Virus record (IMG/VR): IMGVR_UViG_3300021500_000037
Direction: 5' to 3' (one strand)
Source of the DNA: a virus
Length of the DNA stretch: 22,710 bases
A program made the position numbers and the translations under genes. Shown here piece after piece: positions 13,917 to 22,710 of this stretch (position 1 is the stretch's first letter; every line of letters starts with the position of its first letter). Below the pieces are notes generated by a model. It searched no databases. It worked only from the letters and a program-made list of their open reading frames with translations, and had not been told where the DNA came from.

Positions 13917-13990
13917 TGACCTTCGCCACCTGTTCTGTTATACTGTATTCCATAATTTTACGACCTCTTGTGTCTTTTGTAACTGATTAG

Positions 13991-15295
13991 TTACTGTAAT
14001 AACTCTTTTACGGTTTTCAATTCGATATTGATACCGTATTTAGATTTGGCGTCTTCCACCTTCTTTATCGCTCCTGATGTGAAACCGAATGCTATGATTA
14101 TGCCTCCCATCCGGTTGTCGTCCTGGATCACTGTCTGAAATTCCCTTACGACCTTCACACCCACGCGGTCACTACGTTTAACCTGTATCGGGTCACCAAC
14201 AATCGTCCACCCGTCTATACCGCCATCGGCGGATAGTTTTCGATTCATCCTACCCTGAACTGCCTTGACCGCCCACGCCTGGAACAGTGCCGGTTTCATA
14301 TCCCGTAACTTCGCTTCGGTCATCAACTCCACTTCATCGATGATCTCTGGTCTGCTGCCCAATTTATCCAGTCGCTGTTGCATCACCACACAGGCAGGCA
14401 TTTCTGCATCGATACCAATCCATCGCCTGCCGAGTCGTTGTGCAACCGCAAGGGCAGTGCCGCATCCACAGAACGGATCAAGGATTAGATCACCCGGCTT
14501 GCTGCTGGCTTTTATTATGCGCTCCAACAGGGCTTCTGGCTTCTGTGTGGGGTATCCCAGGCGCTCGCCTCCCTTTTTTGGTACTGGATTGATTTCCCAC
14601 CAATCAGATAGGGGTTTATCGGTTTGTGTCCTGTATATTATTTTACCGTTGGCGTCTCTCTTGCTTACCTTTTTTCCGTCTACTATTTCTACCAGATTCC
14701 GTTTTCTCGGTTTCTCCAGTGGTATACGGATTTCATTGAATGTAGATGCCGTTCCTTTGGTATAAAAAAGGATTGTATCATGCATCCTCTGAAAAGAATT
14801 TGAAACATTTGACCACCGGTTGTAACACCACACAATCTCATTCCTAAAGTTCCCGTATCCAAATATCTCATCCATCGCCACCTTTACATAATGAACCGCG
14901 TGCCAGTCCAGATGCACGTAGATACTGCCGGTTGGTTTGAGCACCCGGTAACATTCTTCCAGTCGAACCTTGAGCCATCCAACATAAGCCTCGATGTCGT
15001 TCATCCGAACATCTCTTGCCTTATGCACAGATTCGCCGCAATGCGGGCAAAAGAGATATCCCTCCATGAAGTCTTTCCCGCACTCTGGATTCCCACAAAC
15101 CTTCTTGTAGAATTTGGTGTCCTCGAATGACCGTATGGTGTTTTTGTTATCGCCGTCCCATATCAGATCATAGTTTTTCCCTGAAAAGAATGGTGGATCA
15201 AGGTAGATCAGATCGACCGATTCATCAGGGATGTACTGCCGCATCTTATCCCGGCAGTCGCCACAGATTATCGAATTCGTTATCAACGCTTGCAT
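13991..15295 (-). CDS. Beta-class N6-A/N4-C DNA methyltransferase with Zn-ribbon insert and C-terminal Mrr-like nuclease domain, 434 aa
   Basis: Motif IV DLIYLDPPF precedes motif I LDPFCGCGT; YPTQKPEALL; insert CGNPEC...CPHC; tail FQAWAV...DGGIDG...IQVK...GIIIAFGFT. Confidence 0.9.
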   Translation of the reverse strand: MQALITNSIICGDCRDKMRQYIPDESVDLIYLDPPFFSGKNYDLIWDGDNKNTIRSFEDTKFYKKVCGNPECGKDFMEGYLFCPHCGESVHKARDVRMNDIEAYVGWLKVRLEECYRVLKPTGSIYVHLDWHAVHYVKVAMDEIFGYGNFRNEIVWCYNRWSNVSNSFQRMHDTILFYTKGTASTFNEIRIPLEKPRKRNLVEIVDGKKVSKRDANGKIIYRTQTDKPLSDWWEINPVPKKGGERLGYPTQKPEALLERIIKASSKPGDLILDPFCGCGTALAVAQRLGRRWIGIDAEMPACVVMQQRLDKLGSRPEIIDEVELMTEAKLRDMKPALFQAWAVKAVQGRMNRKLSADGGIDGWTIVGDPIQVKRSDRVGVKVVREFQTVIQDDNRMGGIIIAFGFTSGAIKKVEDAKSKYGINIELKTVKELLQ

Positions 15296-15365
15296 AGTTT
15301 TGTGACCTCTTTTAGTTCTTTACCCCCGTTAGCACGTAACTAATGGGGTTTGTAAAAAATAAAGA
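15293..15365 (-). repeat. Divergent copy of the T-tract/hairpin/SD intergenic element
   Basis: - strand: CTCTTTATTTTTTACAAA CCCCATTAG-ttacgtg-CTAACGGGG GTAAA...AAGAGGTC...ATG. Confidence 0.7.
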
Positions 15366-15376
15366 GTATCGGGGGT

Positions 15377-15700
15377 TCATTCATCGTCCTCGATAGTCTT
15401 CCTGTACACTTCTTTCGCCTTCTCGAATGCCTCTTCAATCTCGATCATTCCCATGTTCTCGGATTCCAACATATCCTGCAGGAATGCGATCTTAAGCGAC
15501 ATTTGGCTCTTGTAGGTATCCGGTGTCCTGTGCACCACAGCCGGGTGTATCTCATACCCACCCGATAGAAAACCTCTCACAAACTCATCGGTGTTTCTAC
15601 CTTCAAGTGCGTCTGTGATCAGTTTAATATCGTCTGTGGGTAGTTTTATCATAAGTTCCCGTGCCCGCTGGTAAACTGTATCGTGTTCCATTGTTATCAC
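15377..15700 (-). CDS. Hypothetical protein, about 104-107 aa
   Basis: Coupled to the upstream ORF by a GTGA overlap; start is GTG 15700 or ATG 15691. Confidence 0.65.
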   Translation of the reverse strand: MITMEHDTVYQRARELMIKLPTDDIKLITDALEGRNTDEFVRGFLSGGYEIHPAVVHRTPDTYKSQMSLKIAFLQDMLESENMGMIEIEEAFEKAKEVYRKTIEDDE

Positions 15701-16086
15701 AGATGTCCTGCGGCATATCTCACCGCCACTGATACGACCATTGACCAGTCATCCAGTCCGCTCTCAACCCCTTTTTTGACTGCGTGCATCTCCTCTGGGG
15801 TCAGTTCCCTGTTGAGTATATCTTTCGCTATGATTTGTGCGTCTTCTTCGGTGATGATGAACAGTGGTTCAGCCTTCCCATCCCAATCGCCCACCTGTGC
15901 TCGGTATACAGCCATGAAAGCGGCTTTTTCAGGGAGTCCATTGACCACATTCTTGATAAACTCTCTCTGCTCCGCCGTGAGCCTGTTCAGGATGTCAGCC
16001 GATTGCTTATAATCATCCCCTATCTTATCCATCGTCTTTACGTCCTCTGCATTGCGCAGTTCTCCGATGTTTAATTCCTGGTTCAT
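15697..16086 (-). CDS. Hypothetical protein, 129 aa
   Basis: ATG supplied by repeat copy 1 with SD GAGGTCG; N-terminus MNQELNIGELRNAEDV. Confidence 0.75.
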   Translation of the reverse strand: MNQELNIGELRNAEDVKTMDKIGDDYKQSADILNRLTAEQREFIKNVVNGLPEKAAFMAVYRAQVGDWDGKAEPLFIITEEDAQIIAKDILNRELTPEEMHAVKKGVESGLDDWSMVVSVAVRYAAGHL

Positions 16087-16163
16087 GTTTACGACCTCTT
16101 TATGGTTTCACCCCTGCGATACGGTTTTAGCCGCTCACAGGGTTTATGAAAAAATAAAGAAAT
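16084..16163 (-). repeat. 80-bp intergenic repeat, copy 1
   Basis: Identical to 20074-20153; one mismatch to 17655-17734. Confidence 0.97.
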
Positions 16164-16176
16164 TATGAGATTTTAA

Positions 16177-16557
16177 CTAAAACCACTTTAGTTTAGCAGC
16201 CTCCATAGCATGTTTCGCAACATGTAGGGTGATCTCACCATCTGGCGAACTTCCGTTCGTTGTATACTCTTTCCATATCTCTGCTGCGATTATGTGCCGC
16301 GTTGCAGTTGGAAGACTGTCGAACTGCATCCATCTCACCCCTTCACCACTGTAATGGCGAATACCTCCTATATCTTTGCCCCATAGGTAATCAGCCAGTT
16401 GCAGTTTTGTAAACACCGCCCCAACATGGTATCTCTCCGAGTTGCCGAGTTTCGCATACAAATAATTCACCAGTGCGGTTTTACTGCTGGCGGATATTCT
16501 GTGAAACGTTTCTTCACCGGTTTTTTTCGATACCAGTTGATATGCGAACATGGTCAT
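16177..16557 (-). CDS. Hypothetical protein, 126 aa
   Basis: SD-like AAGGAG; ends just before the T-tract of repeat copy 1. Confidence 0.7.
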   Translation of the reverse strand: MTMFAYQLVSKKTGEETFHRISASSKTALVNYLYAKLGNSERYHVGAVFTKLQLADYLWGKDIGGIRHYSGEGVRWMQFDSLPTATRHIIAAEIWKEYTTNGSSPDGEITLHVAKHAMEAAKLKWF

Positions 16558-16596
16558 ATCTCCTTCGCCTCGTTTTCTCTGGTGGGTTGTCCCGAT

Positions 16597-17106
16597 TCAT
16601 TCGGTCTCATCATCCTCCCCTGTCTCATCATAGAACCCATTGATAGCCTCGTCGACCGCCGCCGCAACCTTATCGATCGCTGGTGTGGTCATGTCGTCCA
16701 GATACTCCAGTGCACACCCCATAGAACAGAACGTGTTTACAACCCCTGTTTTTGTGCCTGTCCACATCCGGATCGCATCAGTGTAGATGATTCCGCCACA
16801 CCACACACATCGCGGCATTAGATCGACCTGTACCGCCGCCCATACCCGTAACCCATGTGCATCCATTGGATGGTATTCTGTCGCGTTACCCACTGCCATA
16901 GTGATGTTCACGTCCTTCCTGTCGCGTTGCCATAGGTTACGTATCAGTATCGCTGTCTCTACTGCAGCCTGTGGGTCAATCCAAAGATCGCCCTCGCCTT
17001 TATACTCTGGTTGTAGCATATCGCCGTTTATTACGTCCTTCTCATTAGTAATCTCAACGATATGGCTCGCATCCATCCGTGCCTGCCTTGTTATGTAGTA
17101 TCCCAT
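16597..17106 (-). CDS. Hypothetical protein with C-terminal TRASH/treble-clef-like Zn finger, 169 aa
   Basis: CVWCGG...FCSMGC; SD GAGGTAA. Confidence 0.7.
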   Translation of the reverse strand: MGYYITRQARMDASHIVEITNEKDVINGDMLQPEYKGEGDLWIDPQAAVETAILIRNLWQRDRKDVNITMAVGNATEYHPMDAHGLRVWAAVQVDLMPRCVWCGGIIYTDAIRMWTGTKTGVVNTFCSMGCALEYLDDMTTPAIDKVAAAVDEAINGFYDETGEDDETE

Positions 17107-17137
17107 AATATTACCTCATAAATAAATGGATAGAGTG

Positions 17138-17230
17138 TTAAACACCCATCCAAAGTTCTTTCGATATCTCTTTACCGTCTATGGTGATTCTCTGTGTGTC
17201 CGGGTTATCTAACTCATTCATCCGGTTCAT
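17138..17230 (-). CDS. Mini-gene, 30 aa, homologous to the C-terminus of 18926..19444
   Basis: MNRMNELDNPDTQRITIDGKEISKELWMGV versus ...GNTDTQKITIDGKEIPTELWRGV. Confidence 0.5.
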   Translation of the reverse strand: MNRMNELDNPDTQRITIDGKEISKELWMGV

Positions 17231-17234
17231 CTCA

Positions 17235-17657
17235 TCACTTCTCTCTGTACTCGATCAACGCCGCGTTGAAATCGTCGAGATACATATCCAGTAAGTCGAG
17301 TTCCTCCGCCCTGTCAAGTGCCGCCACACACTGGATGAAGATCATCCGATCTTTAGGGTTATCAAATTTATCCAGTGACCGGCTGTAGAAGTCCTTAACC
17401 GCCTCTACCCGCGGCTGTGGTGCAACCCAACTTGCCATCTCACCGCGTGCCTTGATACTTTCCATGAGATTTACAAACTCACGGTTAAAGTAATCAAGTG
17501 AACATCCGTTAACGACCATCTCAACGCGTGCGATATGGTTCACTATCACCCTGCGGGTGTATTGTAGTTCTTTCAGATACCCTTCTATCGTATCGAACGG
17601 TTTCTGCCTTACGTCCTCCGCCTTGAACAGTGCTTTAATGCTTAATTCCTGGTTCAT
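17235..17657 (-). CDS. Hypothetical helical protein, 140 aa
   Basis: ATG supplied by repeat copy 2; N-terminus MNQELSIKALFKAEDV. Confidence 0.75.
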   Translation of the reverse strand: MNQELSIKALFKAEDVRQKPFDTIEGYLKELQYTRRVIVNHIARVEMVVNGCSLDYFNREFVNLMESIKARGEMASWVAPQPRVEAVKDFYSRSLDKFDNPKDRMIFIQCVAALDRAEELDLLDMYLDDFNAALIEYREK

Positions 17658-17734
17658 GTTTACGACCTCTTTATGATTTCACCCCTGCGATACGGTTTTA
17701 GCCGCTCACAGGGTTTATGAAAAAATAAAGAAAT
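17655..17734 (-). repeat. 80-bp intergenic repeat, copy 2
   Basis: 79/80 identical to copies 1 and 3. Confidence 0.97.
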
Positions 17735-17919
17735 CAGAGAACGTCCTTGACTAACTCCCTGAATTTCTCTGTTGGTATACTGAAAGACCTTGATACCACT
17801 GTTTTATCATTTACTTCTGTCTCTATCTCGATAAAGACATAATCGCCCGCCTGGTTCTTAAACACGTTAATCGTGTTCATCACAACACCGGTTTCTCCTC
17901 TGCTGTATGTTCCTGTCAT
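17734..17919 (-). CDS. Small hypothetical protein, 61 aa
   Basis: SD GAGGTAA; stop abuts repeat copy 2; paralog of 20153..20236. Confidence 0.7.
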   Translation of the reverse strand: MTGTYSRGETGVVMNTINVFKNQAGDYVFIEIETEVNDKTVVSRSFSIPTEKFRELVKDVL

Positions 17920-17933
17920 TGTTTACCTCATTG

Positions 17934-17967
17934 AATAAAGAAATTATGAGAGGGTTCTCACCCTCTC
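17934..17967 (-). terminator. Hairpin plus T-rich tract
   Basis: - strand GAGAGGG-tgagaa-CCCTCTC then ATAATTTCTTTATT; the upstream stop codon is in the loop. Confidence 0.5.
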
Positions 17968-18896
17968 CGGTTGTGGGTAAACACCCACCCTGTACCTTCA
18001 TTGCGACCATCTGCTATCTGCCTGGCTATCTCATGGAGTTTCGTTACAATCTCACCCCATTGATCGGCTTCAAGTTCAACCGTCACCGCCCATTCTTTCT
18101 TTAAGGCTTTCTCCAGTTCGATTATACGCTTTTTTACGTCGTCGATGTATTTACCGACCATTGAAGGCAACTTTAGGCGTGCTTCACAGTCGTAATCATA
18201 GAACTGTTTTATATTTGGCATACTGTACCCGATCCCGCACCGTGCATCTATGTACACACTACCGAGTGGATACCCGCCCCATGTGCCGGCATTCTCTGCA
18301 AGGTTTACCCATTGCTTCAATACAAACAGTTCATCAGCCCCGCCGGTTTCGATTGGCTCAACGGTGTGTTCGCTTATGTATTCGCTCCATATCTCATCTA
18401 TGTTCCCGCGTCCCTCTGTAACCTCAAGTCCTAACTCTCCGTTGGGATCATTCCTTTTAACGCTGTCTTCTGCCTCATCTTCATCACTGAAGGTTTCGAC
18501 CTCATTACCGTCGGCATCGATCACGATCCAGGATGGTTCAAACATGTCACATAACGCCTCATATTGGCTTGTGACCTCCGCCCATACGTCGTTAGAACGG
18601 CTATACGCTGCACATATCCGTATCGCATCTTCTATGTCGCTGTTGTACCACAAACCATCATCGGTTTCCTTCTCATTGCAGTTTGCGATTATGTACGCGG
18701 CATCTTCAAGAGTGCACCCCTGATCTGTAACCTCTGTTGTGAAGTATTCCCGGATGTCTCCATATCCGCTTTCATCGAGATATAGATCATCAATGCATTC
18801 CTCACCGTCGATTATTGCCTTCTTTATATCTGGTTCGATCTCTGATATAAACTCGAACGCTGCCTTTTTAATGTCTTTAGCATATTCATATTCCAT
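17958..18896 (-). CDS. Highly acidic protein, about 312 aa, N-terminal region resembling the Ocr DNA mimic
   Basis: ATG 18896 after SD GAGGTTG; 32 D/E versus 9 K/R in the first 120 aa (hand count); ETDDGL...DAIRICAA resembles recalled T7 Ocr FEDSGL...DVIRILQA. Confidence 0.4.
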   Translation of the reverse strand: MEYEYAKDIKKAAFEFISEIEPDIKKAIIDGEECIDDLYLDESGYGDIREYFTTEVTDQGCTLEDAAYIIANCNEKETDDGLWYNSDIEDAIRICAAYSRSNDVWAEVTSQYEALCDMFEPSWIVIDADGNEVETFSDEDEAEDSVKRNDPNGELGLEVTEGRGNIDEIWSEYISEHTVEPIETGGADELFVLKQWVNLAENAGTWGGYPLGSVYIDARCGIGYSMPNIKQFYDYDCEARLKLPSMVGKYIDDVKKRIIELEKALKKEWAVTVELEADQWGEIVTKLHEIARQIADGRNEGTGWVFTHNRRG

Positions 18897-18911
18897 TTTT
18901 ACAACCTCTTT

Positions 18912-18934
18912 AAAGAAAAAAGGGGTTAAACCCC
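18912..18934 (-). terminator. Short hairpin plus T-tract
   Basis: - strand GGGG-tttaa-CCCC then TTTTTTCTTT; the upstream stop is in the loop. Confidence 0.45.
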
Positions 18935-19444
18935 CCTCCATAGTTCTGTTGGTATCTCTTTGCCGTCTATGGTGATTTTCTGTGTATCGGTGTTACCCGC
19001 CCATGAGTAAAACCACTTAACGACCTCTGGCAGTGTCTCCGGTGTGTAATCCAGTGACATACATCCGCGTGGATACCGGTCATGACACTGAAAGAAACCG
19101 CCCTTAAACCCCTTATCGTTGTAATGATCAAGGGTAAAATGCGCTCTCCAGTTCCAGATAGTGCCTTCACGTTCTCCAATGAATTCGCCTGATACAACCC
19201 GCATGAACGTTCTTACTTTTTCAAGTATCGCGCTCATACTGTTGTTTTCCTGTGCCCACCCGATATAAACGCTCGAACCCGCTCCAAACGCTTTAGAGAT
19301 ATCGTTTTTCACGATATCAACAATAACAGGATGTGTATCGATGAATTCAATAACTTTAATGTCGTGCTCATCCTGTGAATAGATATCGGGGTATTCGCTG
19401 CTCTGATATGTCTTTACTTCAACTGTGCGAGAAGTTGTTTCCAT
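18926..19444 (-). CDS. Hypothetical protein, about 172 aa
   Basis: ATG 19444 after GGAGGTCGTAAAC, the same leader as the 80-bp repeats; the ORF track extension to 19516 runs through a promoter. Confidence 0.75.
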   Translation of the reverse strand: METTSRTVEVKTYQSSEYPDIYSQDEHDIKVIEFIDTHPVIVDIVKNDISKAFGAGSSVYIGWAQENNSMSAILEKVRTFMRVVSGEFIGEREGTIWNWRAHFTLDHYNDKGFKGGFFQCHDRYPRGCMSLDYTPETLPEVVKWFYSWAGNTDTQKITIDGKEIPTELWRGV

Positions 19445-19462
19445 GTTTACGACCTCCATATA

Positions 19463-19512
19463 ATACTTATATGTATACGTATAAGTATCACCACCTACCT
19501 TATAAATGTTCC
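19463..19512 (-). promoter_or_regulatory. TATA promoter with palindromic operator
   Basis: TTTATAAG (19499-19506, - strand); 26-bp near-perfect palindrome ATACTTATA-tgtatacg-TATAAGTAT (19463-19488). Confidence 0.6.
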
Positions 19513-19538
19513 GCATGGTGATACCTATACATACCCAT

Positions 19539-19718
19539 TTATCTGTACATCATCCCGGTATCGCTGCCTGCACCATCATCAATAGCCAACAAGTATGTAC
19601 CATCGTCTGATAGTCTTATCTCTACATCCAGTGCGTCCCCGTCCGTCCACAGTGATTTAAAGAATATCACTGCGAACCTGATCTTATCGTATACTCTCAT
19701 CCGCATGTGTGACCTCAT
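19539..19718 (-). CDS. Small hypothetical protein, about 53-59 aa
   Basis: ATGA overlap at 19718 or SD-preceded ATG at 19700. Confidence 0.55.
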   Translation of the reverse strand: MRSHMRMRVYDKIRFAVIFFKSLWTDGDALDVEIRLSDDGTYLLAIDDGAGSDTGMMYR

Positions 19719-19897
19719 AGATGATCGAGTTTTCCGGACTCCAGGCATGATATGATTGTACGCACCTCGTTTATGCGTATATTCATTGCAATCTCTTGTT
19801 TGGTGTCATGCCTGCGCTGTGCGTCGTCTATGTTCTGCTCCTGTGCTCGAACCCTTCTTTCCAGGGCTTCTATGATCTTCTGATATCTCTGACTCAT
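19715..19897 (-). CDS. Small coiled-coil protein, 60 aa
   Basis: ATGA overlap with the upstream ORF; helical heptad pattern. Confidence 0.6.
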   Translation of the reverse strand: MSQRYQKIIEALERRVRAQEQNIDDAQRRHDTKQEIAMNIRINEVRTIISCLESGKLDHL

Positions 19898-20076
19898 GGT
19901 TCTCTCCAGATGATGCTCCCGCCCAATGCTTCAACTATTTCCGTTACTTCTGCTATCATCCGGGCTGCCTGTAAATCTACCCGGTGCCTGAACCCCTGCC
20001 TTCTCAACCGCTCTACCGCTTTGTTAAGTGCGGATTCTGGTATTTGGGTGTTTATCGATGTTCCTGGGTTTTCCAT
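19894..20076 (-). CDS. Small hypothetical protein, 60 aa
   Basis: ATG supplied by repeat copy 3. Confidence 0.65.
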   Translation of the reverse strand: MENPGTSINTQIPESALNKAVERLRRQGFRHRVDLQAARMIAEVTEIVEALGGSIIWREP

Positions 20077-20153
20077 GTTTACGACCTCTTTATGGTTTCA
20101 CCCCTGCGATACGGTTTTAGCCGCTCACAGGGTTTATGAAAAAATAAAGAAAT
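20074..20153 (-). repeat. 80-bp intergenic repeat, copy 3
   Basis: Identical to copy 1. Confidence 0.97.
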
Positions 20154-20236
20154 CAGAGAACGCCCTTAAATAGCCCCCTGATTTTTTCTGTTGGTATAAC
20201 GATACCGGTTTCGCCTCTGCTGTATGTTCCTGCCAT
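20153..20236 (-). CDS. Mini-gene, 27 aa, internally shortened paralog of 17734..17919
   Basis: MAGTYSRGETGIVIPTEKIRGLFKGVL; SD-like GAGGC; in-frame 102-nt length difference. Confidence 0.55.
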   Translation of the reverse strand: MAGTYSRGETGIVIPTEKIRGLFKGVL

Positions 20237-20244
20237 TGTTTGCC

Positions 20245-20457
20245 TCATTGGTCTACCGCATCCGTTTGATGTGGTTTATTCCAATTTTCCACTATTATTA
20301 CATGGTACGTCCGGTTGTTAACGGTTATCATTCTACCCATGTTCAGATGTGGATATATGCCCTGCAGATTGCTTATCGCAGCCGATAAAACTTTATCACG
20401 CCTCGCTCTCTGCTGATTTATCCACTCACATGTTTTATTCCAATGTTCTGATGTCAT
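20245..20457 (-). CDS. Hypothetical protein, about 70 aa
   Basis: ATG 20457 avoids overlap with the upstream gene; SD-like GGTG. Confidence 0.55.
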   Translation of the reverse strand: MTSEHWNKTCEWINQQRARRDKVLSAAISNLQGIYPHLNMGRMITVNNRTYHVIIVENWNKPHQTDAVDQ

Positions 20458-20480
20458 TGTTTGCCACACCGTCCAAAAGG

Positions 20481-21440
20481 TCACACGGATTCGGTGACCC
20501 CAAACGTAACCTCTTTTCTGCAGTCCATGCACATAACGCGGTTGTTATCCTGGTCATACCACCAGTCTATGGGTTTCGATGGTGCACAACCATCAAAATA
20601 CCAGTTATACCCGGCATCATCTGATAACCACTCACCGCAGCCACAGTATGCCATTATGTCCGTCTGTGCCATACTGAAGTAGTCCGGGTGATTCAAACTG
20701 AATATCTGTGGCACAGTGTAGCCACCTCTCACGTCACACCCGCCATGTATCTGAAGGATAATATAGGGCTCACCGTCCACTTCAAATATACCATACTGCA
20801 GCACCTGTGAGATTATGTTATCATAGTTGTACGTATTCACGATACCACCGCACGCGTATCCGTCTATATCGACCTCGTCACGCTCTAAAAACTCTTCCAT
20901 GTCCTGAAGGTACGACCTATTGCCTGATGTCTCAACGATATTCTTTAATATCGCATTTAACCGCTCGGATTCGTCTGTTATGTCCAGGAACAGGGTTAAG
21001 TATCGGTATACATCGTACGATATGGTAACCTCTCCATCTCTACCGTGACCATATACGGTAACATGGCACGCGTCCCGTTTATCCCATTCATCCATAGGGA
21101 TATGTCGGTTGCGCTCCCATGCTCTACCGTACGCACCGCCCGAATCCAGGATATCGCACCCGGTGTTTTCTGTTAACATCCTGATTATCCGTGCTTTTAC
21201 CGGATCAGTTTCTGTTATCTCTGGTTGTGGGTTCTTTCGTTCGCTCTGTGCGCATTCTGCATCAGATAGTACGCTTGCAATCCCTCTAACCAGTGCATCC
21301 GTGCAATCGGTTGTTTCGCCTGTGGTTGTTGGTTCTACTTCTGTATCCAATAATCCAGGCGAACCGTTCGATTTAAACCGCTCATCGACGTAAGCCATCG
21401 CCCGGCACCATTCGTTTATGTCCTGTTCTATGTCTACCAT
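20481..21440 (-). CDS. Acidic hypothetical protein with C-terminal Cys cluster, 319 aa
   Basis: SD GAGGTC; motifs ENTG..ILDSGG.YGR.W, YNYDN..SQ..QY, IHGGCDVRGGY; CGC...CMDC. Confidence 0.8.
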   Translation of the reverse strand: MVDIEQDINEWCRAMAYVDERFKSNGSPGLLDTEVEPTTTGETTDCTDALVRGIASVLSDAECAQSERKNPQPEITETDPVKARIIRMLTENTGCDILDSGGAYGRAWERNRHIPMDEWDKRDACHVTVYGHGRDGEVTISYDVYRYLTLFLDITDESERLNAILKNIVETSGNRSYLQDMEEFLERDEVDIDGYACGGIVNTYNYDNIISQVLQYGIFEVDGEPYIILQIHGGCDVRGGYTVPQIFSLNHPDYFSMAQTDIMAYCGCGEWLSDDAGYNWYFDGCAPSKPIDWWYDQDNNRVMCMDCRKEVTFGVTESV

Positions 21441-21514
21441 TTTTATGACCTCTTTACCCCCATAAGCCTGAACTTATGGAGTTTATAAAGAAAAAGAGGG
21501 CTGTTAACCCCTCT
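21438..21514 (-). repeat. Divergent copy of the T-tract/hairpin/SD intergenic element
   Basis: - strand: AGAGGG-N8-CCCTCT TTTTCTTTATAAA CTCCATAAG-ttcagg-CTTATGGGG GTAAAGAGGTC...ATG. Confidence 0.7.
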
Positions 21515-21631
21515 TTAATCACCATGCCTTAAAGGTATAATATCGATACCCAAATACATGAATATGCCTTTTGGTGTCATATACGGTATCGGGTAATCGT
21601 ATATCTCTGCAGGCGTCTCATTCATCATCAT
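21515..21631 (-). CDS. Possible 38-aa ORF
   Basis: Starts 2 nt after the upstream stop with SD-like GGTGA; fills the gap exactly. Confidence 0.35.
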   Translation of the reverse strand: MMMNETPAEIYDYPIPYMTPKGIFMYLGIDIIPLRHGD

Positions 21632-21804: not shown

Positions 21805-21825
21805 GGTTTATTCCACCTCTTTATA

Positions 21826-21886
21826 TATACGTATGCAGTTACGTATAAGTATAAGTATCGGCTTTATCCGATATAAAGGTATCGTT
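21826..21886 (-). promoter_or_regulatory. TATA promoter with palindromic operator
   Basis: TTTATAT (21871-21877, - strand); inverted repeat TATACGTA-N6-TACGTATA (21826-21847); shares TACGTATAAGTAT with the 19463-19512 promoter. Confidence 0.55.
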
Positions 21887-21905
21887 AGCTAAAAAATTTC
21901 ACATA

Positions 21906-22210: not shown

Positions 22211-22383
22211 TTTTAGGTTACCTAAAATCGCCAATATTGCGAGTTAGGTTACCCATTTAGGTAACCTAAACAGCAAAAACGCTATCTATAGGCTGGTTAC
22301 CCACATCCATGCTGGTTACGCAGGTTACCCGCCGGGTAAACAAAATGTGCATATTTGACGGTGTGGGTTGAAACATGGTTACC
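22211..22383. repeat. Cluster of GGTNACC palindromic sites
   Basis: Exact sites at 22216, 22247, 22260, 22295, 22323, 22377, near-sites at 22314 and 22335; two sit in longer palindromes (22211-22227, 22256-22270). Confidence 0.85.
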
Positions 22384-22454
22384 CCAATATCTCCCGGAAC
22401 CCCACTGGAAACGTTAATATGATAGAAGGATATTGATATTTTTACCTGTGCCAT

Positions 22455-22527
22455 GCCTCGATAGCAGAGTTGGTAATGCGCCTGGCTGTTAACCAGGAGA
22501 CTACCGGTTCGAGTCCGGTTCGAGGCG
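22455..22527 (+). tRNA. tRNA-Asn(GTT), no encoded CCA
   Basis: Acceptor GCCTCGA/TCGAGGC, discriminator G, anticodon stem CCTGG/CCAGG with loop CTGTTAA, T-arm ACCGG-TTCGAGT-CCGGT. Confidence 0.95.
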
Positions 22528-22536
22528 TATCATTCG

Positions 22537-22710
22537 TCACCTCACCAGTTGCCTCACGTCGTCGTACCCCTTCTCTCGTGCGGCTGCCTTAAGTTCTGCG
22601 AGTTCCTGTCGCAATGTCCTCAATTCTTCCATCACGTCAGCCCCCACCGGTTGTTCGAGTATCTGCACGTCTCTCTCGATCTCACCGTATCTTTTCGTGT
22701 ATTCTTTCGG
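22537..22710 (-). CDS. 3' end of a gene entering from the right; possibly the tail of a tyrosine recombinase
   Basis: Open frame PKEYTKRYGEIERDVQILEQPVGADVMEELRTLRQELAELKAAAREKGYDDVRQLVR*. Pattern P-x-E-x4-Y-x3-E-x4-ILE plus coiled coil recalls archaeal integrase tails; catalytic residues not in the window. Confidence 0.3.
   Translation of the reverse strand, partial: PKEYTKRYGEIERDVQILEQPVGADVMEELRTLRQELAELKAAAREKGYDDVRQLVR

Follow-up and report, generated by a model that had tools for sequence, protein, structure and literature searches.

The window analyzed here is the whole 22,710-nucleotide (nt) contig IMGVR_UViG_3300021500_000037 of IMG/VR, in which an array of small genes is punctuated by repeated units, each with a T-rich tract, a hairpin, a Shine-Dalgarno (SD) box and a start codon. 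With moderate confidence, we read these units as composite cassettes placed between cistrons as punctuation, in the accessory-gene arm of a mobile element of ANME-2 (anaerobic methanotrophic) archaea that bears an integrase; they would act as recombination crossover points and form a counterpart of the promoter-stem-loop (PeSL) elements of T4-like phages. In the proposed arrangement, an oligo-T tract past the upstream stop codon would serve as a terminator or attenuator, a stable stem-loop would follow, and a strong box for ribosome binding, made up of GAGGT, an invariant 7-nt spacer and ATG, would lead into the next gene. Identical units would act as crossover points, through which neighboring small genes could be duplicated, deleted and reassorted. 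The occurrence of the same 80 nt between unrelated genes suggests that the copies are held near-identical by gene conversion, that is, by homologous recombination. The units are as follows:

20074-20153, minus strand: unit A, copy 3, with the T-run at 20133-20152, the inner hairpin at 20101-20132, the SD core GAGGT at 20084-20088 and, at 20074-20076, the ATG of a 60-amino acid (aa) gene
17655-17734, minus strand: unit A, copy 2, with one mismatch, the inner hairpin at 17682-17713 and the ATG of a 140-aa gene
16084-16163, minus strand: unit A, copy 1, with the inner hairpin at 16111-16142 and the ATG of a chimeric 129-aa gene
21438-21516, minus strand: unit B, with a terminator-like hairpin (21493-21516) just past the upstream stop, a T-run, a second hairpin with another stem (21457-21481), an SD box and the ATG of a 319-aa gene
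15293-15365, minus strand: unit C, with a T-run, a hairpin with a third stem version (15323-15348), an SD box and the ATG of a DNA methyltransferase gene

A preliminary description of this stretch had reported three 80-nt copies with at most one mismatch, and these have been confirmed at 79-80 identical positions out of 80. The two divergent copies it had placed at 15293-15365 and 21438-21514 show their parts in an unchanged order, from T-run through A-rich linker, hairpin and SD box to ATG, with other stems, and the three 80-nt copies begin, as it had stated, at the upstream stop codon or at most 14 nt from it. Along the minus strand, unit A opens with a T-rich tract (TTTCTTTAT and a T6 run); an A-rich linker comes next, then a stem of 12 bp capped by a 6-nt loop, and finally the SD box and ATG. 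Imperfect terminal inverted arms (14 nt, 86%) are present in the unit. The same A-rich linker precedes all three stem types. Units B and C have related stems, in which one pair is compensatory and one is a mismatch, and the unit A stem is unrelated to them in sequence; MAFFT gave no in-register alignment of the three stem types, which have no common consensus. The sense-strand folds of the three unit types are much more stable than those of shuffled sequences, with z = -7.0, -5.5 and -3.6.

The motifs of the units are strongly enriched. The 16-nt SD/start box AGAGGTCGTAAACATG has nine matches with up to three mismatches against 0.31 expected, and every one is on the minus strand, within 13953-21453. 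Of these, two (16033 and 16732) fall in coding sequence, while seven stand ahead of start codons, five of these with an upstream hairpin. The T-motif TTTCTTTAT has five exact matches against 0.22 expected, all within the array and on this strand. The minus strand is the coding strand for all genes from 21804 to 12130, and the units set apart groups of one to three tightly packed genes. The earlier statement that the genes between the units are short, co-oriented and mostly unknown agrees with what is found, namely small minus-strand genes mostly without a family assignment.

The preliminary description had also called the element archaeal, and this is supported. The nearest genome is a metagenome-assembled genome (MAG) at NCBI named ‘ANME-2 cluster archaeon’, and two of its contigs are 99% identical to the window where they align. 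The host 16S rRNA, taken from this MAG, has the 3' end ...GGATCACCTCCT, which is complementary to GAGGT; together with the 7-nt spacer, this makes the box a proper Shine-Dalgarno site.

The same MAG bears on the authenticity of the copies. One of its contigs carries the units at 21438 and 20074 at 99% identity, the latter (copy 3 of unit A) as an identical copy. Contigs from JGI, Logan and ENA, 5-7 of them and up to 38,750 nt long, encode the exact products of five array genes (61, 140, 129, 169 and 60 aa). These observations speak against a collapse of the copies as assembly artefacts, which the preliminary description had named as a way in which its proposal could fail. It is highly improbable that an assembly artefact has multiplied one intergenic region, or that the unit is a self-mobile miniature element resembling MITEs (miniature inverted-repeat transposable elements). 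Identical repeats of 80-125 nt may mislead short-read assemblers, and the inverted arms and the sharp unit edges are what a MITE would show, but target-site duplications are absent and the unit ends with the in-frame ATG of three different genes. There is also no scatter of copies in the nearest MAG, where a single copy in 1.7 Mb has been found, on the element's own contig. No copies have been found in IMG/VR, JGI metagenome contigs or GenBank phages: the exact 32-nt hairpin is absent from IMG/VR and, among GTDB genome contigs, present only on the element's own contig in the ANME-2 MAG; a degenerate T-run...SD pattern gave no match in JGI metagenome contigs; a degenerate three-part pattern gave 12 single matches in IMG/VR, read as chance-like; and blastn of the unit against GenBank phages gave none. 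The MITE reading has been rejected on the lack of target-site duplication and the location of the sole MAG match.

Traces of recombination have been found within the window, at the units or beside them. In 20-nt bins, the units of the pair 16084/20074 are identical at 19-20 of 20 positions and the flanks fall at once, on both edges, to 3-8 of 20, the level of chance, so that these two copies have the unit alone in common. The pair 16084/17655 shares ~40 nt of extra identity downstream, where the neighboring proteins are 38% identical over 53 aa. The pair 17655/20074 shares ~45 nt of extra identity upstream (125 nt at 94%) and, past a 102-nt in-frame indel, a further 55 nt at 89%. The flanks have therefore been reassorted: the left flank of copy 17655 resembles that of 20074 (end of the 61-aa gene 94%, start 89%), while its right flank resembles that of 16084. 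Units that are identical while the neighboring paralogs are at 38% aa identity or less point to gene conversion or recent recombination and not to one old duplication. The 129-aa gene is itself chimeric, with an N-terminus like that of the 140-aa gene and 54 C-terminal residues that match the whole of proteins of 59 and at least 63 aa in relatives. Three further features carry remnants of such events:

16153-16170, minus strand: empty-site footprint, 18 nt identical to 17934-17951
20153-20250, minus strand: the 61-aa gene (17734-17919) in a copy of 27 aa that differs by an in-frame internal indel of 102 nt, duplicated along with unit A
17138-17230, minus strand: 30-aa open reading frame (ORF), a gene relic whose 3' 71 nt (17137-17207) correspond at 85% identity to the 3' end and stop-codon hairpin of the 172-aa gene (18925-18995)

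Owing to the identity of 16153-16170 with 17934-17951, the left edge of copy 1 of unit A joins the flank upstream of the 61-aa gene to the unit downstream of that gene. As read from the sequence, the footprint would be the expected remnant of a deletion of the 61-aa gene between two TTTCTTTATT repeats. We infer that recombination has caused this pattern of flanks and relics.

The preliminary description also drew a comparison with integrons. At the right end of the window lie a tRNA-Asn and the 3' end of a gene that, as its continuation in a contig of 99% identity shows, encodes a tyrosine recombinase of 408 aa; this gene stands directly upstream of the array, across a 650-nt non-coding region. 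The hairpins could be attC-like sites for the neighboring recombinase in a site-specific, integron-like cassette system. The units are imperfect nested palindromes of ~65-75 nt, conserved in shape and not in sequence, and, like attC sites, they lie as structured palindromes between promoterless ORFs beside a tyrosine recombinase gene. However, the recombinase scores 26.8 bits against a cut-off of 220 with the archaeal XerA/integron-integrase model and E = 2e-4 with Pfam Phage_integrase, and no IntI model was reported for it. No R''/R' core sites, R''/L''-L'/R' arms or GTTRRRY core have been found at the unit edges, which instead consist of the stop codon and T-run on one side and the SD and ATG on the other, as expected of expression signals; attC sites differ in this, since the unit carries translation signals. 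The footprint, moreover, is a deletion between 10-nt direct repeats with no site-specific joint. The integron comparison does not hold, as the recombinase is not IntI and the units have no attC core sites; this reading has been rejected, and we give it only a very slight chance.

The roles of the parts can be considered next. Oligo-T is the archaeal termination signal, and T5-T6 runs fit it. The T5-T6 runs of the units resemble a hairpin-plus-T8 terminator at the operon end. Judged by sequence, an archaeal terminator or attenuator is a likelier role for the T-run than a promoter, and the tract may be a weak TATA-like element too. We infer the terminator function of the unit from its sequence, as well as a regulatory role of the hairpin, if any.

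A different reading of the same T-rich tract is that the units are plain repeated viral promoters, with a TATA-like CTTTAT... box and an operator-like inverted repeat, selected for co-regulation and with no particular role in shuffling. Two regions of the array are relevant for comparison:

19445-19538, minus strand: promoter-like junction P2, with 26-nt inverted arms on both sides of a TATA-like TTTATAA, then the palindromic motif that P1 also has, and an SD box leading to the ATG of the 172-aa gene
21805-21900, minus strand: promoter-like region P1 ahead of the first array gene, with a TATA-like TTTATAT and the shared palindromic motif

P1 and P2 look like canonical archaeal TATA promoters and are candidates for regulated array promoters; their common palindromic, operator-like motif lies around GATACTTATACGTA. 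The CTTTATAAAC of unit B is close to the TTTATAA and TTTATAT of P2 and P1. The promoter reading also has precedent in haloarchaeal viruses. In HF2, all intergenic repeats of classes I and II, with their AT-rich motifs, drove a reporter, their positions are conserved in the genus, and shuffling was not reported (Russ 2021, PMC8707807); HF2 repeats with a similar CTTTAAGT motif are among these proven promoters (PMC8707807). Like the units, the HF2 repeats are AT-rich motifs of an archaeal virus found between genes only. They differ in having no general hairpin and no SD box, and in their genus-conserved positions, whereas the unit is missing from the short contigs of relatives described below.

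The haloarchaeal myovirus HGTV-1 is described in the review PMC3950731 (citing Sencilo 2013) as having a TATA-like box and an inverted repeat ahead of most ORFs of one arm; there the motif is likened to PeSLs, and roles in transcription and shuffling are proposed. So described, HGTV-1 shares with the present element an archaeal setting and a conserved motif ahead of the ORFs of one genome arm. In its sequence (NC_021328), we found repeat families of ~27-42 nt that are 70-80% alike, lie ~30 nt from ATG and have no SD, in the leaderless style of haloarchaea. The units differ in being 80-nt identical copies with an SD, a T-run and variable stems.

Several features of the units do not fit a promoter. 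The T-tract has no purine-rich B recognition element (BRE) of the kind found ahead of host tRNA genes. At two junctions the T-motif lies 19-21 nt from ATG, which is too near for it to be that gene's promoter. If RNA began ~25-30 nt past the TATA-like box, its start would be within the hairpin loop for unit A and beyond the hairpin for unit B. The three different stems speak against a single sequence-specific repressor. Recombination would still be needed to explain the reassorted flanks and relics. On the other hand, the SD is predicted to be open if the RNA begins inside the unit, as described below. We regard the repeated-promoter reading as unlikely, yet serious.

The folding predictions raise another alternative. 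In a read-through RNA, the T-tract is predicted to pair with the SD box. Behind hairpin units, all five genes have a predicted SD accessibility of 0.03-0.20, compared with 0.34-0.89 for most of the remaining array genes; two genes without units are also predicted to be masked. For an RNA that starts at the hairpin or inside the unit, the masking is lost and accessibility is predicted at 0.4-0.6. The units could be a gate at the RNA level, in which the U-tract pairs with the SD in read-through mRNA, and translation occurs only if a ribosome terminating upstream melts the stem (translational coupling) or if cleavage in the A/U-rich linker leaves a protective 5' hairpin. Such a gate is consistent with an upstream stop codon that lies 0-24 nt away from the 5' arm and, in two copies, within the outer stem, and with the same A-rich linker ahead of all three stems. 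Sense folds are better than antisense folds in unit A (-34.5 vs -24.2 kcal/mol) and unit B (-29.6 vs -21.6 kcal/mol) because of G.U pairs, and one substitution in the MAG strain changes a U.G to a C-G pair in the stem of unit B.

The gate would also have an analog in the start-associated sequences (SAS) and extended SAS (ESAS) of Cluster K mycobacteriophages, which are believed to act on translation initiation. There, a ribosome-binding box lies 3-8 nt before the start codons of some non-structural genes in one orientation, with a suspected link to translation (Pope 2011, PMC3203893), and about half of the boxes are preceded immediately by an imperfect inverted repeat whose spacer varies (PMC3203893). 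The seven SD boxes before start codons, five of them with an upstream hairpin, resemble this arrangement. SAS/ESAS, on the other hand, belong to a bacterial system with no sequence relation to the units; SAS has no T-run; the ESAS arms share a conserved consensus, which suggests a protein site, while the stems here have no common consensus; and SAS sites are conserved with gene families, while the units are identical between unrelated genes.

Against an RNA gate, the distance from stop codon to 5' arm is variable, unit C shows no strand preference, unit-free genes are masked too, and the support consists of thermodynamic predictions. In a control, the masking survived shuffling or deletion of the inner hairpin. 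The inner hairpin as a clamp needed for SD masking has been rejected on this result; because the masking persists without this hairpin, the masking may be a by-product of a U-rich terminator close to a purine-rich SD. We consider an RNA-level gate distinctly unlikely as the main explanation. Our best guess for the inner hairpin is a protective 5' stem-loop or stabilizer, or a processing mark, for the downstream message.

Returning to the reading of the units as recombining punctuation cassettes, PeSLs of T4-like phages are, by analogy, the closest functional analog. They are composite elements of ~100 bp, with a terminator/promoter, stem-loop, SD and ATG, found among ORFans, and mediate indels and mini-circles (Arbiol 2010, PMC2839356; Comeau 2014, PMC4122927). 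The units have in common with them a composite motif from stop codon to ATG in which an AT-rich part, a stem-loop and an SD precede the start codon, and which is enriched among small ORFan genes on one strand. Groups of one to three genes lie between units, as with PeSLs (PMC2839356, PMC4122927). In both cases copies stand beside unrelated genes. For PeSLs, the pattern of insertion, deletion and replacement suggests homologous recombination between copies, and the flanks and relics within the window may have arisen in a similar way. There are also clear differences. The sigma-70 -35/-10 promoter is absent here (14 sigma-70-like sites against 21.4 expected), as the host is archaeal, and the AT-rich part is an oligo-T tract for which an archaeal terminator is the better reading. 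Here the stem-loop comes after the T-run and is no terminator in its own right. Five hairpin units are found here compared with dozens in PeSL phages, and where PeSLs have inter-genome breakpoints and mini-circles, the traces here lie within one genome. The suggestion in the preliminary description of an undescribed system is too strong, since PeSLs are known, the HF2 repeats carry promoters (PMC8707807), and a PeSL-like motif is already proposed for HGTV-1 (PMC3950731). The unit would instead be an archaeal variant of the regulatory cassettes of T4-like phages and not a new kind of system, a PeSL-like reading that is partly supported, by evidence from within the genome. The earlier idea that the repeat supplies both expression signals and a recombination substrate stands for the first part, as a composite signal cassette between small genes; for the second, the recombination traces are internal to the window.

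The preliminary description had proposed a comparison of related genomes for changes in gene order and content. The MCM-like protein of the window has many relatives at 65-94% identity, and the relatives compared are the short contigs L023, L024, L025, L026 and L004 (from a second ANME-2-family MAG), at 66-83% MCM identity. The gene set around RFC and MCM differs from the window in all five. The methyltransferase is absent in L023 and L004, and an extra 49-55-aa gene is present in L023, L004 and L026. In L025, the space separating the RFC-like gene from the MCM-like gene holds a homolog (678-851; 40% identity over 42 aa) of the 55-aa array gene at 19539-19706, and small ORFs with similar N-termini are found between RFC and MCM in L023 (1346-1579) and L024 (212-412), while in the window the RFC and MCM genes abut. 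None of these short contigs contains a unit; their genes overlap or abut at compact junctions. The differing gene sets and the compact, unit-free relatives indicate a plastic region, yet with no breakpoint demonstrated in a unit. In L026, a short match to the N-terminus of the RFC-like protein (1475-1546) overlaps a match to residues 102-165 of the MCM-like protein (1529-1720), so that 1475-1720 is either an RFC/MCM deletion fusion or a sign of a chimeric contig.

Other searches gave few relatives. A DNA search of 201 Methanosarcinales genomes for the array returned only the near-identical MAG pieces, and a search of 27 genomes of the family for the MCM-like protein returned two matches, on short contigs. 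Alignment of MCM found nothing closer than relatives at 24-32% identity in IMG/VR, and four short relatives among metagenome contigs. The 312-aa gene had no matches in IMG/VR and 284 Methanosarcinales genomes. Longer foreign contigs with homologs of both the 319-aa and the 312-aa genes do exist.

A number of points weigh against the units as recombining cassettes. Only three copies are identical, and one or two recent duplications together with purifying selection could mimic gene conversion. No inter-genome breakpoint within a unit has been found, the relatives compared lack the unit, and the only unit-bearing comparison genome is the near-identical MAG strain, in which the array is unchanged over the 2.4 kb covered, apart from 2 substitutions. 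The missing BRE and the inconsistent position of the hairpin relative to any TATA-derived start site count here as well. Unit C folds as well on the antisense strand, and, as the inner hairpin is not required for the predicted masking, the masking does not account for its conserved shape. The cassette shuffling proposed at the outset is accordingly upheld in part: the reassorted flanks, footprint, relics, chimeric gene and variable gene content agree with it, and no repeat-bounded indel between genomes has been found. The comparison of relatives is divided in the same way, as gene content varies, but the relatives have no unit and the near-identical strain is unchanged.

Additional junctions of the array carry some of the same parts:

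18894-18939, minus strand: ‘open’ junction, a hairpin with the stop codon in its loop, a T6 run, then an SD box and the ATG of the 312-aa gene, with no second hairpin
17917-17967, minus strand: ‘open’ junction before the 61-aa gene, with a hairpin, TTTCTTTAT, SD and ATG
17104-17152, minus strand: ‘open’ junction before the 169-aa gene, with a hairpin with the stop codon in its loop, a weak T-run, SD and ATG
13953-13968, minus strand: further SD box with 3 mismatches, followed by a mini-ORF, in a gap of 74 nt that separates the methyltransferase gene from the RFC-like gene

The mini-ORF in this gap (13917-13990) is in a frame other than that of RFC, and the gap may be a relic of the 49-55-aa gene present there in relatives. 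The first large array gene, encoding the 319-aa protein (20481-21440), belongs to a large uncharacterized family (phrog_11344; 1,464 database hits), whose named members come from Nitrososphaera, bacterial MAGs and viruses; the C-terminus of the protein is Cys-rich. A protein atlas search with the two large array genes gave no lead.

Outside the array, the window encodes a DnaG-primase/D5-helicase fusion, a glycosyltransferase, two JAB proteins, a PCNA homolog and tRNA-Met, as well as the MCM-like AAA+ core, the RFC-like ATPase and the N6/N4 DNA methyltransferase. No virion genes have been recognized in the window, so the element could be either a virus or a plasmid. An Rfam scan of the window, at the gathering threshold and also at E <= 1, found two tRNAs only. 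At the contig start, downstream of the primase-helicase gene, positions 21-141 contain exact 50-nt direct repeats with a 25-nt sub-repeat present three times. In the MAG contig L002, a 476-aa transposase-like gene (659-2089, phrog_506) lies upstream of the recombinase gene.

Two segments of the window are replaced in the MAG strain. The first (22454-22572), which holds the tRNA-Asn and the last codons of the recombinase, is represented in the 99%-identical L002 (4104-4370) by an unrelated 268-nt segment, and strain substitutions cluster at the adjoining 22334-22449. The window tRNA-Asn is only 74-79% identical to the host tRNA-Asn genes and therefore may be element-borne or part of an attachment site. 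The second is a 269-nt patch in the methyltransferase gene (14567-14834); in its place, between flanks of 99.6-100% identity, the MAG contig G001:C105 has 293 nt that do not match it. This could be an exchanged target-recognition part.

ANME archaea are uncultured, and gene gain and loss in their viruses and plasmids are largely unknown. A PeSL-like unit would carry phage-type modular gene shuffling over to a methane-cycling archaeal lineage with SD-led translation. It would also offer Methanosarcinales genetics three compact, testable parts, namely an oligo-T stop signal, a stem-loop and a strong ribosome-binding box. The conservation of the hairpin position with three different stems is not explained by any known analog. 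A bolder view, which we hold to be doubtful, is that of a self-homogenizing ‘gate’ module, in which the U-tract ends or attenuates upstream transcription and masks the next SD, the variable-stem hairpin marks RNA processing or stabilization, and the identical copies drive the excision, duplication and exchange of cassettes, including circles, among ANME-associated elements. If true, this would constitute a recombination-plus-insulation system for accessory genes in uncultured methane-cycling archaea.

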